A stretch of 26,518 bases of DNA from Anaerolineales bacterium (GTDB taxonomy: Bacteria > Chloroflexota > Anaerolineae > Anaerolineales > Villigracilaceae): assembly GCA_036507155.1 (NCBI GenBank), contig DASXQN010000005.1:1-26518 (forward strand), given 5' to 3'. The notes beneath the pieces are model-generated. The model worked only from the letters and a program-made list of their open reading frames with translations, made no database searches and was not told the DNA's origin. Below are positions 1,543 through 26,212 of this stretch, one piece after another; the stretch's first letter is position 1; the number at the start of each line of letters is the position of its first letter. Position numbers and translations under genes: made by a program.

Positions 1543-1798
1543 TGTCATTGCGAGCGGAGGTCGAGTAGGGGCGCCAAAAGCGCCACGTACACTTGCACCT
1601 GCACTTGTAACGTGCACGCAGTGCAAGTGCAAGTACGGGTGTCGAGACCAAGCGAAGCAATCTCCTCCTTCACGATGAGATTGCCAAGTCGCCGGTGCGA
1701 GACGGCAGCGCGCGGCTCCTCCCACTGCTCCGCTGCGGGATACCCTATCCCCTTCGGGGACCTTCGGCGGGCACACGTGCTTCGCGATCGCAATGACA
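1543..1798. repeat. Composite REP/MITE-like palindromic element, copy A
   Basis: Termini TGTCATTGCGA...TCGCAATGACA, internal GCAATCTC/GAGATTGC pair; the right arm is the reverse complement of 3664-3725. Confidence 0.85.
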
Positions 1799-3663: not shown

Positions 3664-3807
3664 TGTCATTGCGATCGCGAAGCACGTGTGCCCGCCGAAG
3701 GTCCCCGAAGGGGATAGGGTATCCCGTAGGGAAGCAATCTCCTCTTTCGCGATCAGATTAATTCGTCGCAGTCGCTCCGCTCAGCGCGATAGCTCATGGC
3801 AATGACA
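3664..3807. repeat. Composite REP-like element, copy B
   Basis: TGTCATTGCGATCGCGAAGC...GAAGCAATCTCC...GCAATGACA. Confidence 0.85.
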
Positions 3808-4781: not shown

Positions 4782-4799
4782 TTATTGTAAGGGCGCAGC

Positions 4800-5507
4800 A
4801 TGCTGCGCCCCTACTGGTCGATGCAAAACCTCTTCAAGCGCTACACCCCTCTGCAAGTCCTCGTGCACCTCGGCGCGTGGTTCCCTTTGGCGCGCCTGGC
4901 CTTCGACTATTACGCCGGCAACCTATCCGCCAACCCGATCCAGGACATGCAGCAGCGCATGGGCCGCGCCGCCATCACCTTATTGGTGCTGTCGCTCGCC
5001 TGCACGCCGCTCAGCTCGATCTTCGGCTGGCGCGAGGCGCCCAAGCGCAGCCGGGCGCTCGGCTTGTACGCCGTTATGTACGTCACGATCCACCTGCTGA
5101 TCTTCATCGACCTCGACTATGGCTTCGCCTGGAGCATGATCCTGCAGACCATTGTCCAGAAGCCGTATATCCTGGTTGGCCTGACGACGTTCCTGTTGTT
5201 GCTGCCGCTGGCCCTGACCTCCTTCGATGTATGGAAGGCGCGCCTGGGAAAGAACTGGAAGCGGCTGCACCAGCTCATTTACTGGATCGCGCCGCTGGCC
5301 GTCCTGCATTATGCCTGGGCCAAGAAGGGCGATCTCTTCAAATTAAGCGGGGACATCACGCGGCCGTTGTTGTACGGGCTGGTGGTGGCCATCCTGCTGA
5401 TCCTACGCCTTCCGGCGGTCCGTAAATTCTTCGGCTCGATCCGGGACCGCATCCGGCTCCGCAGACGGCAGCCCGCACCCGTGGATGAAAATGCCTTAAA
5501 CGCGTGA
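4800..5507 (+). CDS. msrQ: MsrQ (YedZ) heme-binding membrane subunit
   Basis: LSLACTP, RALGLYA, YVTIHL, ALTS, WKRLHQLIY, VLHYAW; directly follows msrP; alternative start 4821. Confidence 0.93.
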   Translation: MLRPYWSMQNLFKRYTPLQVLVHLGAWFPLARLAFDYYAGNLSANPIQDMQQRMGRAAITLLVLSLACTPLSSIFGWREAPKRSRALGLYAVMYVTIHLLIFIDLDYGFAWSMILQTIVQKPYILVGLTTFLLLLPLALTSFDVWKARLGKNWKRLHQLIYWIAPLAVLHYAWAKKGDLFKLSGDITRPLLYGLVVAILLILRLPAVRKFFGSIRDRIRLRRRQPAPVDENALNA

Positions 5508-5541
5508 ACGATGGAAGGCTGCAACAGCAAGTTCGGTTTCT

Positions 5542-5599
5542 TAGTTGCGTAGTTGATTAGTTGATTAGTTGTGTAGTTGATTAGTTGATTAGTGGTTAG
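5542..5599. repeat. 8-bp tandem array (TAGTTGAT)n
   Basis: tagttgcg tagttgat tagttgat tagttgtg tagttgat tagttgat tagtggt tag. Confidence 0.9.
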
Positions 5600-5620
5600 A
5601 AGCTTGGCTTTTCGAACCTT

Positions 5621-5678
5621 CTCCGTTCATCCCCGTCCATCTCCGGTCATCTCCGTTTATCTCCGTTCATCTCCGGTC
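5621..5678. repeat. 10-bp tandem array (CTCCGTTCAT)n
   Basis: Six degenerate units: ctccgttcat ccccgtccat ctccggtcat ctccgtttat ctccgttcat ctccggtc. Confidence 0.9.
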
Positions 5679-5726
5679 CGGTCCGGCACAGTACAAAAGT
5701 AGCATTCAGGCGTTCGAAAAGGCCCG

Positions 5727-6667: not shown

Positions 6668-7333
6668 ATGCGAAAATTTGTAGCTGTGGCCGGCAATATC
6701 GGCGTGGGCAAGTCCACCCTCGTAAATATGTTGTGCGAAATCATGGGCTGGCAGCCGTTCTTCGAACCGGTGAATGAGAACCCATACCTGGCCGATTTTT
6801 ACAGCAACATGGATGCCTGGGCTTTCCATTCCCAGGTGTTTTTCCTGACCAATCGTCTGCGCTCCCATTTCCAGCTTTCCCTGCACTCCGGTTCGGTCAT
6901 CCAGGACCGCAGCCTGTATGAGGACGCGGAGATCTTTGCCCGCAACCTGTATATGCAGGGACACATGCAGATGCGCGATTATCAGACCTATCGTGACCTG
7001 TACGAGACCGCTACGCAGTTTCTCCCGCCACCGGATTTGGTCGTCTACCTGCGGGCCTCGGTGCCCACGCTGATGACGCGCATCTCCAGCCGCGGGCGCG
7101 ACTACGAGCGCACCATCTCCTTCGATTACCTGCAAAGCCTGAACGACCTGTACGAGGAATGGATCGATAACTTCACCGTCTGCCCGATGCTGGCCGTCCC
7201 GGCCGATGACCTGGATTATGTGGCCCACCCCGGTCACCTGAAGTTGATCGTGGCCAAGGTGGAGGAGAAGCTGACGGGGAAGGAAGAAGTGGTTTTCGAT
7301 CCGGAGGAAGTGGCCCGCGCCGCGGTGGATTGA
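6668..7333 (+). CDS. dck: Deoxynucleoside kinase, dAK/dCK (Dck-like) type
   Basis: P-loop AGNIGVGKST, ENPYLADFY, QVFFL, QDRSLYEDAEIFA, lid RISSRGRDYE. Confidence 0.9.
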   Translation: MRKFVAVAGNIGVGKSTLVNMLCEIMGWQPFFEPVNENPYLADFYSNMDAWAFHSQVFFLTNRLRSHFQLSLHSGSVIQDRSLYEDAEIFARNLYMQGHMQMRDYQTYRDLYETATQFLPPPDLVVYLRASVPTLMTRISSRGRDYERTISFDYLQSLNDLYEEWIDNFTVCPMLAVPADDLDYVAHPGHLKLIVAKVEEKLTGKEEVVFDPEEVARAAVD

Positions 7334-7344
7334 AATCTGGATTC

Positions 7345-7402
7345 TTAACGCAAAGCCGCATGGGTTTTGAATCTGCTTTCCGACTTTGCGGCGCTGCGTT
7401 AA
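7345..7402. repeat. TTAAC-terminated REP-like palindrome (AACGCAAAG type)
   Basis: ttaacgcaaagccgca ... ctttgcggcgctgcgttaa imperfect inverted repeat. Confidence 0.6.
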
Positions 7403-7457
7403 AGCCTTTGGCATAAATTGCTTCGTTCCCGGCGGGCTAAGCCCGCCGTTGAGCAGG

Positions 7458-7491
7458 AAAAAAAGACGATCCGAACGGATCGTCTTTTTTT
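7458..7491. terminator. Bidirectional Rho-independent terminator
   Basis: A7-GACGATCCG-AA-CGGATCGTC-T7 between convergent genes. Confidence 0.9.
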
Positions 7492-7497
7492 GGATCA

Positions 7498-7595
7498 TAT
7501 CATTGCGATCGCGAAGCACGTGTGCCCGCAAGGGTATCCCGTAGCGAAGCGTAGCGAGGAGGTACGAGCAAAGCGAGGACCGACGTGGCAATCTC
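7498..7595. repeat. REP-like element, copy C (single arm)
   Basis: tatcattgcgatcgcgaagc-acgtgtgcccgcaagggt-atcccgtag...gcaatctc. Confidence 0.8.
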
Positions 7596-7614
7596 GGGTC
7601 GAAAAGATGTTTGG

Positions 7615-10908: not shown

Positions 10909-11912
10909 CCATTGGCCGCGGCGACCTCGTCCAGAAGGATCTCGATCTCATCCAGATACTGATCCAGCCCCTGCAAACGGTCCTCGAAACCTGTCCCGAA
11001 CAGACCGAGCGCCTGGAACGCGGCCTGCCAGGCTCTGGCCTGCTCGCCCTGCAGGACGGCCGCAGCCAGGGTCCACGTGTAGACCAACGGCCAGATCGCG
11101 GTGCTCGCGTTCCCGCTCTCGAGCATGGCCCGGATGGCCTTTTCATAATAGTTCAAGCGCGCTGGATGGATGCGCACGTCGACGCGCGCGTCGCTGCCGG
11201 CCGCCGCGAACGCCATCTTCCAATCCGAGAGCCACTCTTCTATGCTGGCCGGCTCCAACGAGGAGGCGCCCAGCAGCCCGATCAGACCCGCTTGCAACCC
11301 CGGACGTTCGAGCGCTTCGGCTCGCGCGGGAAATTCGAGCAGCAGCCGGCGCTCCGCGATCGGCGGTCCGCTCAGCTCCGCCACGGCATTGGCCGCCAGG
11401 TAGAGCGCCTGCAGGTATTGAATCACTTCGCCTGCGCCGACCGGCGCGCCCGCGTTCAGCATCAGTGGGGTCCAGTGCTTGCGCGCCTGGGTGTACAGGG
11501 TACGGCAGCGCTGCAGGGTCAGCGGTGCCTGTTCAAATTCGAAGCCGGCCCGCAGGCTGGCCTGCACAAAATCGAAGAATCTTTCGCGCTCGTACAGGAG
11601 CAGCGGATCGTACATCTCGTAGCCAAGCCACGGGTCGCCGCGCAGCTCACGCGGCGACTTGAACTCGTCCTTCGAGCGGCGCATGAGATCGACATGGATA
11701 TCCGGGCTGAGTATGATGAAAGAGCGGGGTTGCGCGGGTGGCCGTTTGTACACGAAGACCAGGTCGATGTCCGCTGTGCCGCCCAGCAGCGGATCGCGGT
11801 CCGTGAGCAGCGAACCCGTCAGGTAGGCCGCGATGATGTCTTTGTCGTTGTAGGCCCGCTCCTGGGCCGTCTCTTTGGCGATGCGGATGAGCGACTCGCG
11901 TGTCACGCGCAT
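10893..11912 (-). CDS. Hypothetical protein with a Pol-beta-like nucleotidyltransferase N-terminal domain and a helical C-terminal domain
   Basis: AYLTGSLL...ADIDLVF and a later HVDL fit the G[S]...DxD...D signature; C-terminal half looks helical. Confidence 0.65.
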   Translation of the reverse strand: MRVTRESLIRIAKETAQERAYNDKDIIAAYLTGSLLTDRDPLLGGTADIDLVFVYKRPPAQPRSFIILSPDIHVDLMRRSKDEFKSPRELRGDPWLGYEMYDPLLLYERERFFDFVQASLRAGFEFEQAPLTLQRCRTLYTQARKHWTPLMLNAGAPVGAGEVIQYLQALYLAANAVAELSGPPIAERRLLLEFPARAEALERPGLQAGLIGLLGASSLEPASIEEWLSDWKMAFAAAGSDARVDVRIHPARLNYYEKAIRAMLESGNASTAIWPLVYTWTLAAAVLQGEQARAWQAAFQALGLFGTGFEDRLQGLDQYLDEIEILLDEVAAANGIVDL

Positions 11913-11923
11913 GCGGACCCCGC

Positions 11924-12565
11924 TCAGGCCTCAGCCAGGGGGAGGCTCGGTTGAAACGGACTCAGGCCCAGGGCCTCGCGGATGCGGTTTTCCACCAGGT
12001 CGAGATGTTCCTCGTTGTCGACGAAGTTCAGGCGGTTGGTGTCGATCGTCAGGACCGGCGTGTGGTCGAATGGCAGCGCAAAGAACTCCTCGTAGGCCCG
12101 GTTGAGATCGGCAATGTAATTCCGTTCCATCTGCCGCTCGTACGGGCGGTCGCGCAGCGTTATACGCTGCATGAGCGCATCCGTTTCCGCGCGCAGGAAG
12201 ACGATCAGGTCAGGCTTCGGGATCTTCTCTCCGAGGGCCTCATGGACCCGGTCGTACATGGCGAGTTCTTCGCCTTTCAAATTGATGCGGGCGAACAGGG
12301 AGTCCTTGGCGAACGTGTAATCGGCCAGCACGTTCTTGCCGGCCGCCAGCATGTCCGGCACGGTCTTGTTCTGCTGGCGGTAACGGCTGAGCAGAAAGAA
12401 GATCTGTGTTTGGAAAGCATAACGTTCGCGGTCGGAATAAAAGTCCGACAGGAACGGATTCTCTTCAAAGATTTCCAACAGGAGATCGGCCGCAAAGCGA
12501 GGCTGCATGAGGCGAGCCAGCGTCGTCTTGCCTGCGCCGATCACTCCTTCGATCGCAACATACAT
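11924..12565 (-). CDS. dgk: Deoxynucleoside kinase, dGK (Dgk-like) type
   Basis: YVAIEGVIGAGKTTL, ENPFLSDFY, QIFFL, ADYTFAKDSLFA (DY in place of DRS), RITLRDRPYE; GGAG RBS before ATG 12565. Confidence 0.85.
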   Translation of the reverse strand: MYVAIEGVIGAGKTTLARLMQPRFAADLLLEIFEENPFLSDFYSDRERYAFQTQIFFLLSRYRQQNKTVPDMLAAGKNVLADYTFAKDSLFARINLKGEELAMYDRVHEALGEKIPKPDLIVFLRAETDALMQRITLRDRPYERQMERNYIADLNRAYEEFFALPFDHTPVLTIDTNRLNFVDNEEHLDLVENRIREALGLSPFQPSLPLAEA

Positions 12566-12610
12566 CGTTGTCTCCAGGTTGGGCTGCGCCAAGGATACCA
12601 TAATTACGTT

Positions 12611-12745
12611 TGTCATTGCGATCGCGAAGCACGTGTGCCCGCAAGGGTATCCCGGAGCGATCCCTTCGTCTTCGCTCAGGGCAGGCTCCGGGAGCGAAGT
12701 CGAAGCGGCGGCGATCGCGAAGCATCCCGTAGGGAAGCAATCTCC
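12611..12745. repeat. Composite REP-like element, copy D
   Basis: TGTCATTGCGATCGCGAAGC start, internal duplication of gcgatcgcgaagc...atcccg, ends gaagcaatctcc. Confidence 0.85.
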
Positions 12746-12928
12746 TCCTAACAATCGGAATGCTGCGCATCCGCGACCTTGCGTTAATTCCTTGGCCGAG
12801 TGCGATTCTTGTACACGGACAACGCGGATGATACTGACCTTCACGGAAGAAACAAAAAGGGATCCGTGCCTTTCCGTATCGATCCGATTATTCCGTGTAC
12901 AGAGAATCCGCTCTGACCTCAAACCCGC

Positions 12929-12934
12929 TATAAT
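12929..12934 (+). promoter_or_regulatory. -10 element, probably leaderless mRNA
   Basis: TATAAT 6 nt before ATG 12941; no SD sequence. Confidence 0.55.
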
Positions 12935-12940
12935 CCGCCC

Positions 12941-13951
12941 ATGCCTCGCATTTGCATCGTGCCGCGCGTGGACGGATCGGGCGGCATGGCCTCCTTCCGC
13001 CTCAAGTTTGAAGACGGTCTGCACACGCGCGGGGTGGACGTCACCTATGATCCCGCGCATAATCCGGACGCGCTGTTGCTGATCGCCGGCACCCGCAACC
13101 TGCTCTCGTTGTGGAAAGCGCGGCGCCGCGGCACGCGCATCGTCCAGCGCCTGGACGGCATCAACTGGGTGCAGCGCGCGCGCTGGACCGGGCCGCGTTA
13201 TCATGTGCGCGCCGAATACGGCAACGCGCTGCTGGCTTTCATCCGTGCGCGGCTGGCGGACCGCGTGGTCTATCAGAGTCAGTTCATCCGGCGCTGGTGG
13301 GAGGACTGGTACGGGCCGGCCGCCGTTCCGGCGCGCGTAATCTTAAACGGCGTGGATTTGCATCGTTATGCGCCGGCAGGTTCCTCCAACCTGCCGGCCG
13401 ATCGTTTTCGTCTGCTGGTGGTGGAGGGCAGCCTGGCGGGCGGCCTGGATACGGGTCTGCGCGCCGCGGCCCGGCTGGCCGACCTGCTGTCGGAGAAATT
13501 CCCGATCGAATTGGTCGTCGCCGGACGCGTGGACGCCAGGCTGCAGTCCGACCTGGGTCGCCGCAGCCGCGCCCCTATCCGCTTCCTGGGTTTCGTGCCG
13601 CGTGAGCAGATCCCTGAGCTGGACCGCTCCGCGCACCTGTTGTTTTCGGCGGAGATCAACCCGCCCTGTCCCAACTCGGTCATCGAGGCGCTGGCGTGCG
13701 GCCTGCCGGTGCTCGGCTTCGACACAGGTGCGCTCGCCGAGCTGGTTGCGGACGATGCGGGCCGGTTGGTTCCGTACGGCAGCGATCGATGGAAGCTTGA
13801 ACCGCCGGACGTGCCGGCATTGGTACAGCCGGCCATCGAGATCCTGCAGGACCAGCCGCGCTTCCGCCGTGCCGCGCGGGCGCGCGCCGAGGCCGCACTC
13901 GGACTGGACCCGATGGTGGACGCGTACCTTAAGACTCTTCTAGAGAATTAA
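12941..13951 (+). CDS. Glycosyltransferase family 4 (GT-B)
   Basis: VQRLDG, VVYQSQF, ILNGVDL, FLGFVP, PPCPNSVIEALACGLPVLGFDTGALAELV (EX7E motif). Confidence 0.9.
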   Translation: MPRICIVPRVDGSGGMASFRLKFEDGLHTRGVDVTYDPAHNPDALLLIAGTRNLLSLWKARRRGTRIVQRLDGINWVQRARWTGPRYHVRAEYGNALLAFIRARLADRVVYQSQFIRRWWEDWYGPAAVPARVILNGVDLHRYAPAGSSNLPADRFRLLVVEGSLAGGLDTGLRAAARLADLLSEKFPIELVVAGRVDARLQSDLGRRSRAPIRFLGFVPREQIPELDRSAHLLFSAEINPPCPNSVIEALACGLPVLGFDTGALAELVADDAGRLVPYGSDRWKLEPPDVPALVQPAIEILQDQPRFRRAARARAEAALGLDPMVDAYLKTLLEN

Positions 13952-14040
13952 CCACGAAGACACGAAGTCACGAAGGCACCAAATCATTAAAATGCATCTA
14001 CATAATCCAACCCTCCCCAACTTTGTGTCTTCGTGGTAAA
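13949..14040. repeat. TTAAC-type REP-like palindrome (CACGAAG type)
   Basis: accacgaagacacgaagtcacgaag ... ctttgtgtcttcgtggt inverted repeat overlapping the GT4 stop codon. Confidence 0.7.
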
Positions 14041-26102: not shown

Positions 26103-26212
26103 TAACCACAGATACCCTTGCGGGCACACGTGAACGCAGATAAACGGGATTTTTGGGGCGGCATGAGCAGGATTTTCATCAAACCATCAGTGTTTATCCG
26201 TGTTTATCTGCC
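26103..26212. repeat. TTAAC-type REP-like palindrome (CACAGAT type) carrying the 18-bp insert
   Basis: taaccacagat[acccttgcgggcacacgt]gaacgcagataaacgg ... atcagtgtttatccgtgtttatctgc. Confidence 0.75.

Follow-up and report, generated by a model that had tools for sequence, protein, structure and literature searches.

An 18-nucleotide hairpin unit nested in short repeats of a soil Chloroflexota genome and in a Mu-like prophage: a probable non-autonomous insertion module

The window, i.e. the whole 26,518-nt stretch of DNA that was analysed, belongs to the assembly of a soil Chloroflexota MAG (2.89 Mb in 531 contigs, 60.7% G+C, 87.5% complete). An 18-nt unit, ACGTGTGCCCGCAAGGGT, was matched exactly at three places in the window, as against 0.01 matches expected from dinucleotide-preserving shuffles. 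Two copies lie on the + strand within hairpin repeats, at 7518-7535 (repeat C; loop GCAA) and at 12631-12648 (repeat D), and both are bordered by gcgatcgcgaagc on the left and atcccg on the right (gcgaagc^atcccg). The third copy, at 26114-26131 on the - strand, is located ahead of the last unit of a decamer tandem repeat of the ATCYSYGTTY type, with atctgcgttc as its left flank and atctgtggtt as its right flank (junction gcgttc^atctgtggtt). In addition, two 37-nt long forms of the unit, with a second hairpin of 19-20 nt in the loop, were found at 1742-1778 (copy A, - strand) and 3684-3720 (copy B, + strand). The host hairpin repeats of copies A, B, and C extend over 1677-1798 (-), 3664-3742 (+), and 7499-7596 (+), respectively. 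The region 12611-12745 (+) is a TGTC-tagged composite hairpin repeat, GTCATTGCGA...GCAATCTC, which hosts both copy D and an empty site; the latter is the unfilled target gcgatcgcgaagc^atcccgtagggaagcaatctcc at 12711-12745 (+), with its junction between 12723 and 12724. No target duplication is present at the copies of the unit in the window. The CCC-GCAA-GGG stem-loop is present in the unit, and its predicted folding energy is ordinary, being no better than that of shuffles. The heptamer GCGAAGC, the sequence of a GNA-loop DNA mini-hairpin of exceptional stability, stands directly 5' of the insertion point at 7511-7517, 12624-12630, and 12717-12723 (GCGNAGC genome-wide). A preliminary description of this DNA, made from the sequence alone, had reported the insert in copies C and D ahead of atcccg, its expanded form in A and B, the empty site, the interruption of a different repeat near 26113, and the hairpin; all of these were recovered, with a correction of 1-2 nt to the coordinates given there.

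Further small repeats occur in the same window. An unfilled GTAG-tagged palindrome, GGCGCAGC^ATGCTGCGCC, is located at 4787-4814, and filled versions of it were found on contigs C1, C24, C204, C253, and C483. An unfilled decamer tandem array of the same type as the host of the 26114 copy (family D1) lies at 5620-5689 on the + strand. Adjacent tandem arrays, one with an 8-nt unit of the GTTGATTA type and the other with a 10-nt unit of the ATCTCCGTTC type, occupy a single intergenic region at 5536-5689. Between convergent genes and just ahead of host repeat C, a strong hairpin flanked by runs of A and of T on opposite sides spans 7457-7496; it is conserved in the sister genome and is likely a two-way terminator. 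Rfam searches at the gathering score identified no family in the window or in 12 loci, and a permissive Rfam scan around 7518 returned only noise at the neighbouring terminator. The second tiny hairpin of the long forms, CGAAGG-TCCCC-GAA-GGGGA-T, occupies the loop of the 18-mer in all of them (3696-3715 and 1747-1766 in the window; C457:3269-3329 and C370:5921 elsewhere in this genome, G000). It was also found a few times outside the 18-mer and may itself represent another nested insert of this sort.

A genome-wide search identified 11 exact copies of the 18-mer, 33 copies within two mismatches, and about 9 long forms, or about 40 copies in all, every one of which is intergenic and lies inside another repeat. 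Sixteen of the 18 positions are nearly invariant (about 1% substitutions), and the two middle bases of the loop are free and take at least seven values, so that the consensus of the unit reads ACGTGTGCCCG-NN-AGGGT. The stem comprises 3 bp, or 6 bp when two G-T pairs are counted, and compensatory changes preserve it in two variants (CCCC/GGGG and CCAC/GTGG). At C94:914-934 and C473:8027-8047 of this genome there is a 21-nt relative, with a 4-bp stem that differs by a compensatory change and an ACGTGT head able to pair with ACACG in the right flank. The loop variants CA, CC, TA, and TT each occur in several host families, and each host family contains several loop variants; several of these variants are C-to-T differences, which, we infer, might fit deamination of unpaired cytosines. 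A scan restricted to the core, GTGCCCGNNAGGG, located 34 copies in the genome. The four bases preceding the core are ACGT in 30-34 of the 34, the A at the first position being found in every copy, and T, A, and T come next on the 3' side in 30-31 of the 34 (31 and 30, respectively, for the AT that follows the unit). The 5' end of the unit is thus as sharply defined in this genome as the 3' end. The base just left of the unit depends on the host repeat, and the unit keeps one orientation with respect to both its host and the AT that follows.

At least four types of host were distinguished in this genome, each of which also exists in an unfilled version that is often the more numerous. The first is the apical part of the composite hairpin repeats GTCATTGCGA...GCAATCTC, in which the unit stands directly 3' of GCGNAGC. 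The second is a related small hairpin, cagtgcaatcgcgaagc^atccccgtgggactgc; the third is the centre of GTAG-tagged palindromes, gtaggggcgaagc^atgcttcgcccctac; and the fourth is the junction ahead of the last unit in decamer tandem arrays, a position at which seven further genomic copies were found besides that at 26114. About 40 unfilled GCGAAGCATCCC sites were counted genome-wide. The preliminary description had proposed a site-specific mobile unit that resides in REPs. That the insert is discrete is borne out by the identical boundaries, the number of hosts, and their unfilled versions; its restriction to REPs did not hold. Mobility itself is argued from the comparison of filled and empty sites, no polymorphism having been seen, and the assembler contigs from public runs break at the repeats. 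A sister genome of the same genus holds repeats at the orthologous sites that are built differently (a simple GTCATTGC/GCAATGAC palindrome at the site corresponding to copy C), and because the orthologous repeats differ in composition it provided no clean filled/empty pair.

The distribution of the unit among relatives is patchy. Between 27 and 33 copies (27 exact) were counted here, versus 1 in a sister-species genome of the same genus. Eight of 36 genomes of the family contain the unit (G001, G004, G011, G018, G019, G022, G033, and G034) and 28 do not, and with at most one mismatch allowed it was present in 8 of 400 genomes drawn evenly from the class; the reversed-pattern control gave 0-1 matches across the 400 genomes. 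An exact-pattern scan of one genome per species recovered at least 95 stretches. Among the matches listed, most stretches belong to Anaerolineales, Caldilineaceae, and other Chloroflexota, and others to Desulfomicrobium and to one Syntrophaceae contig; this tabulation of flanks, for which the preliminary description had called, added more than 25 further host contexts in Anaerolineae, Caldilineaceae, and Desulfomicrobium to the four or more unrelated ones seen here. In the other genomes, again among the matches listed, the base to the left of the unit is free and AT follows. Of the earlier rule that every site is C^ATC without duplication, the absence of duplication stands and the strict C^ATC does not, the target being N^AT. 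Stems of at least 6 bp formed by the flanks enclose the unit at 19-22% of the sites among the matches listed, versus 1.5% at control AT sites. A conserved hairpin element that is dispersed and about 70 nt long hosts the unit in Desulfomicrobium and related MAGs, aaaatccagggccgaagcgt ... ggtctggatttt (loci L006, L008, L013, L043, L082, L085, L091, L017, and L080).

Chance similarity, or an artefact of assembly or of adapters, has a practically negligible probability as an explanation of these matches. By our own arithmetic, a 596-Gb collection should yield about 17 matches to 18 specified bases by chance, and isolated matches are for this reason probably fortuitous; one of them, in a GH1 gene shared by five species of Collinsella, is most simply attributed to chance. 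For the bulk of the copies this explanation is refuted by the excess over shuffles in the window, by the reversed-pattern control, and by the recovery of copies in many studies independent of one another and with various assemblers, long-read assemblies among them. Furthermore, run X1 contains 0.97 of the sampled words of window positions 11000-14000, within which the 12631 copy lies.

The host module GCGNAGCATCCC is rare in relatives and expanded only in this genome; host and insert have therefore expanded together in this lineage, and some or many of the copies may owe their spread to that of the host and not to insertions of their own. This joint expansion is one of several observations that agree with a shuffling of modules, according to which the 18-mer would be an interchangeable apical module copied between repeats by gene conversion or template switching at broken hairpin tips. 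The host repeats are highly modular and their inner modules differ at orthologous sites, the long form shows the 18-mer itself interrupted by another small hairpin, and hairpin tips are over-represented as sites. Such copying does not readily account for boundaries that are identical to the base in hosts having only 1 nt in common, for the fixed orientation relative to AT, or for the presence of the unit in decamer arrays and in unique phage coding DNA, where there is no hairpin host. We regard shuffling as an unlikely explanation, albeit one with some weight.

The copies in phage coding DNA were found in Syntrophaceae UBA6078, in which all 43 exact core matches of the genome fall within about 8.8-30 kb of a single contig. 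A Mu-like prophage at about 8.7-38 kb of this contig, DIXO01000028 (L014, L092, and L108), contains about 55 copies of the unit. The prophage encodes MuA, a MuB-like ATPase, Gam, the Mu portal, F, protease I, gpT, sheath, and tape measure proteins, its G+C content is about 65% versus 52-59% outside, and the same prophage sequence is contained in IMG/VR. In the first 40 kb of the contig, 51 of 55 copies are on the strand opposite to the genes. Many copies form head-to-tail arrays with an exact 18-nt period, and in the solitary copies the first base is variable and the 3' end sharp. A 1-nt target duplication in the prophage was seen at 9 of 29 arrays, which is the level expected by chance. The MuA protein of this prophage is 841 aa in length, versus about 690 aa in relatives, and contains copies of the unit in-frame in two different frames, one of which yields PGGHT-type blocks and the other TLTGTR. 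In an alignment with five homologues (49-61% identity), the hexapeptide blocks derived from the unit fall in gaps of all five. On a second viral contig, three of three copies are likewise antisense and in-frame. The in-frame prophage copies are absent from homologues, and the unit therefore also enters DNA that is not repetitive. It persists in coding DNA because an insert of 18 nt causes no frameshift and brings in no stop codon in any of its six frames. Other in-frame micro-repeats, of the KQGLPSLS and PRPPRP types, join the unit in composite cassettes in several prophage genes.

The head-to-tail arrays with their exact period, the sharp 3' end combined with a variable first base in solitary phage copies, and the strand bias of 51:4 are what would be expected if an RT-like polymerase used a short template to extend a 3' end exposed by a nick or break, in the manner of telomerase, the added DNA then being sealed in. 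Templated addition of this kind is nevertheless quite improbable: no RVT_1 domain was detected in this genome (87.5% complete) or in the scanned prophage ORFs, and the copies of this genome form no arrays and have a 5' end as sharp as the 3' end (34/34).

Candidate genes for a mover were compared with the positions of both the unit and its main host. The genome encodes eight small GIY-YIG genes and two RAYT-like Y1 genes, and contains 132 host repeats of the form GTCATTGCGA...GCAATC. These main host repeats run GTCATT...AATC and are TGTC-tagged; the tag and the AT-starting stem fit the CGTC-tagged REP superfamily (PMC3733652), and the GTAG-tagged palindrome that serves as another host is a GTAG-tagged REP. 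Inverted GTCATTGCGAGG...CGACGAAGCAATC hairpin repeats flank small single-domain GIY-YIG genes (C142:10300-10900; C356:5270-5800 and 7290-7610). The host repeat borders the GIY-YIG genes of C142 and C356 on both sides, two further loci have it on one side, and the arrangement recurs in another, copy-rich Anaerolineales genome (L128 and L129). The same gene-flanking architecture characterizes the NTS/SRM hairpin repeats, which flank the genes of the Ssn GIY-YIG ssDNA nucleases (Chenal 2025, PMC11893778). Matches to the published SRM search pattern are no more frequent in the genome than in the reversed-genome control (17 versus 20), and the host repeats are for this reason called SRM-like.

For the 18-mer itself, the search for HUH/RAYT, GIY-YIG, or RT genes carrying it in their flanks, another suggestion of the preliminary description, identified none. 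It is absent from the flanks of the eight small GIY-YIG genes and from those in the second copy-rich genome, there is no copy on the contigs of the two RAYT-like genes, and neither RAYT nor GIY-YIG genes were found in the Mu-like prophage or, among the matches listed, within 8 kb of 95 copies. Close relatives of RAYT-1 occur in family genomes G008, G011, and G033, a set that differs from the eight genomes with the unit, and RAYT-1 is accordingly considered not to be associated with it. The hairpins neighbouring the RAYT genes are of a type other than the 18-mer and its main hosts. Two small hairpins, gcggacttcagtccgc and gccgactaaagtcggc, stand ahead of a RAYT-like Y1 transposase gene at L096:640-730 (C112 of this genome), and hairpins of this type recur beside 18-mer-bearing hairpins in other Anaerolineae (L011, L030, L064, L077, and L083).

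These searches also bear on the view that the 18-mer is a selected functional site carried passively, e.g. a hairpin recognised by an Ssn-like ssDNA nuclease or by a protein that binds DNA or RNA. Selection would agree with 16 near-invariant positions and two free loop bases within and across phyla, and the layout of CGTG 5' tag, stem, 4-nt loop, and tail resembles a miniature CGTC-tagged REP or NTS (PMC3733652, PMC11893778) in a genome with eight small GIY-YIG genes. The 18-mer fails the published SRM pattern, however, as it has GTG where GTC is required, and it flanks no GIY-YIG gene and matches no Rfam family. A binding role would also leave the tandem arrays and the in-frame phage copies unexplained, and we judge a purely functional site to be distinctly unlikely.

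What is established is that the unit has discrete and identical boundaries, that each host occurs in filled and empty versions, and that the distribution is patchy by lineage and extends to several phyla and to phage. From these observations we consider it probable, with some reservation, that the 18-nt unit is a very small non-autonomous insertion module, occupying many unrelated sites and mobilised in trans; it may be read as one of the smallest insertion elements seen. The module would always enter in the same orientation, so that a pre-existing AT adjoins its 3' end, and without target duplication, at places where DNA is likely to be single-stranded or extruded, namely hairpin apices, palindrome centres, and the last decamer junction; in other genomes it would land in unique coding DNA as well. 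The mover would be a trans-acting ssDNA enzyme, specific for both sequence and structure, that recognises the 16 fixed bases irrespective of the loop; an HUH Y1 transposase (RAYT/IS200 type) and an Ssn-like GIY-YIG nuclease are candidates. Such an enzyme is the most likely mover because the features listed are those of single-strand, hairpin-directed HUH transposition. The involvement of ssDNA and hairpins is only inferred, given that no transposase, GIY-YIG, or RT gene is linked to the unit, which agrees with the earlier statement that no mobilising enzyme could be assigned. It also counts against the module that its hairpin is thermodynamically weak and that a single hairpin of 3-6 bp is, to our knowledge, smaller than any characterised HUH transposase substrate (IS608, REP-RAYT). 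A more specific proposal, in which the unit is written strand-specifically into replicating DNA, including phage genomes, by an Ssn-like nuclease plus a ligase or by a wholly new enzyme, is conceivable but doubtful.

Among described elements, the closest are the small dispersed repeats of Nostoc (SDR4-6), with which the unit was compared by description. The SDRs of the Nostocaceae, 21-27 nt in length, are said to have been reported by Elhai et al. in 2008 (Genome Res 18:1484). The unit shares with them a size in the tens of bases, dispersal, precise insertion at a fixed point within other short repeats without duplication, and many copies in some genomes combined with near absence from close relatives. 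SDRs also sit in tandem heptamers, and we know of no enzyme for them. According to PMC4390886, SDR5 inserts precisely between bases 3 and 4 of HIP1, and according to PMC5861425 none of these repeats were found outside Nostocaceae. The unit differs in being 18 nt long and in having a Chloroflexota rather than a Nostocaceae host, and also in that an identical unit occurs in several phyla and in phage, with in-frame coding copies and tandem arrays.

The REP/REPIN-RAYT systems and the CGTC REPs resemble the unit in their short tag and hairpin, their clusters of intergenic repeats, and the presence of RAYT-like genes, and in Thermomicrobium roseum, also of the Chloroflexota, GTAG-23 REPs are inserted inside small palindromes that exist unfilled as well (Di Nocera 2013, PMC3733652). 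The tag of the unit is ACGT/CGTG rather than GTAG/CGTC, its stem is 3-6 bp versus at least 8 bp, and it flanks no cognate RAYT gene (2 genes, 95 listed loci). In comparison with the SRM/NTS-Ssn systems, the 18-mer has a similar tag-stem-loop-tail layout, but neither strand of it, taken in context, fits the published SRM pattern, nor does the host repeat; inverted copies of the 18-mer flank no GIY-YIG gene, whereas the host repeat does so (C142, C356, and the second genome), and Ssn is known only for cutting ssDNA and not for inserting DNA. From MITEs the unit differs in lacking terminal inverted repeats and target-site duplications. The IS200/IS605 family shares with it the absence of duplication and of terminal inverted repeats, the single orientation beside a short fixed target (AT in 30-31 of 34), dependence on a hairpin, and a strand bias as expected for single-strand targets. 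Both members of that family and their miniature derivatives need a hairpin at each end and measure at least 100 nt, whereas the unit has one hairpin in 18 nt. The family and its miniature derivatives are discussed in PMC6006769 and PMC11893778; no IS200/IS605-type parent element bearing TnpA and these ends was found. Finally, the Mu-like prophage copies, though not those of this genome, are similar to the Rickettsia palindromic elements (RPEs) in being in-frame in functional genes and absent from homologues. In length, RPEs far exceed 18 nt. According to PMC3733652, two of the RPE families belong to the CGTC REPs.

How elements too small to encode, or properly bind, a transposase are able to spread has been an open question since the Nostoc SDRs were described in 2008. 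The present unit offers a sharply defined substrate, in which 16 bases are fixed, the loop is free, and the target is N^AT, and because filled and empty sites are abundant and candidate ssDNA enzymes in the genome are few, the question of the mover can be tested with oligonucleotides. Units of this kind cross phyla, ride in transposable phage, and add peptide loops to proteins. If strand-specific writing by a new enzyme were true, the unit would be the smallest self-defined mobile DNA, and the peppering of phage genomes with it would possibly reflect an interaction between host and phage.
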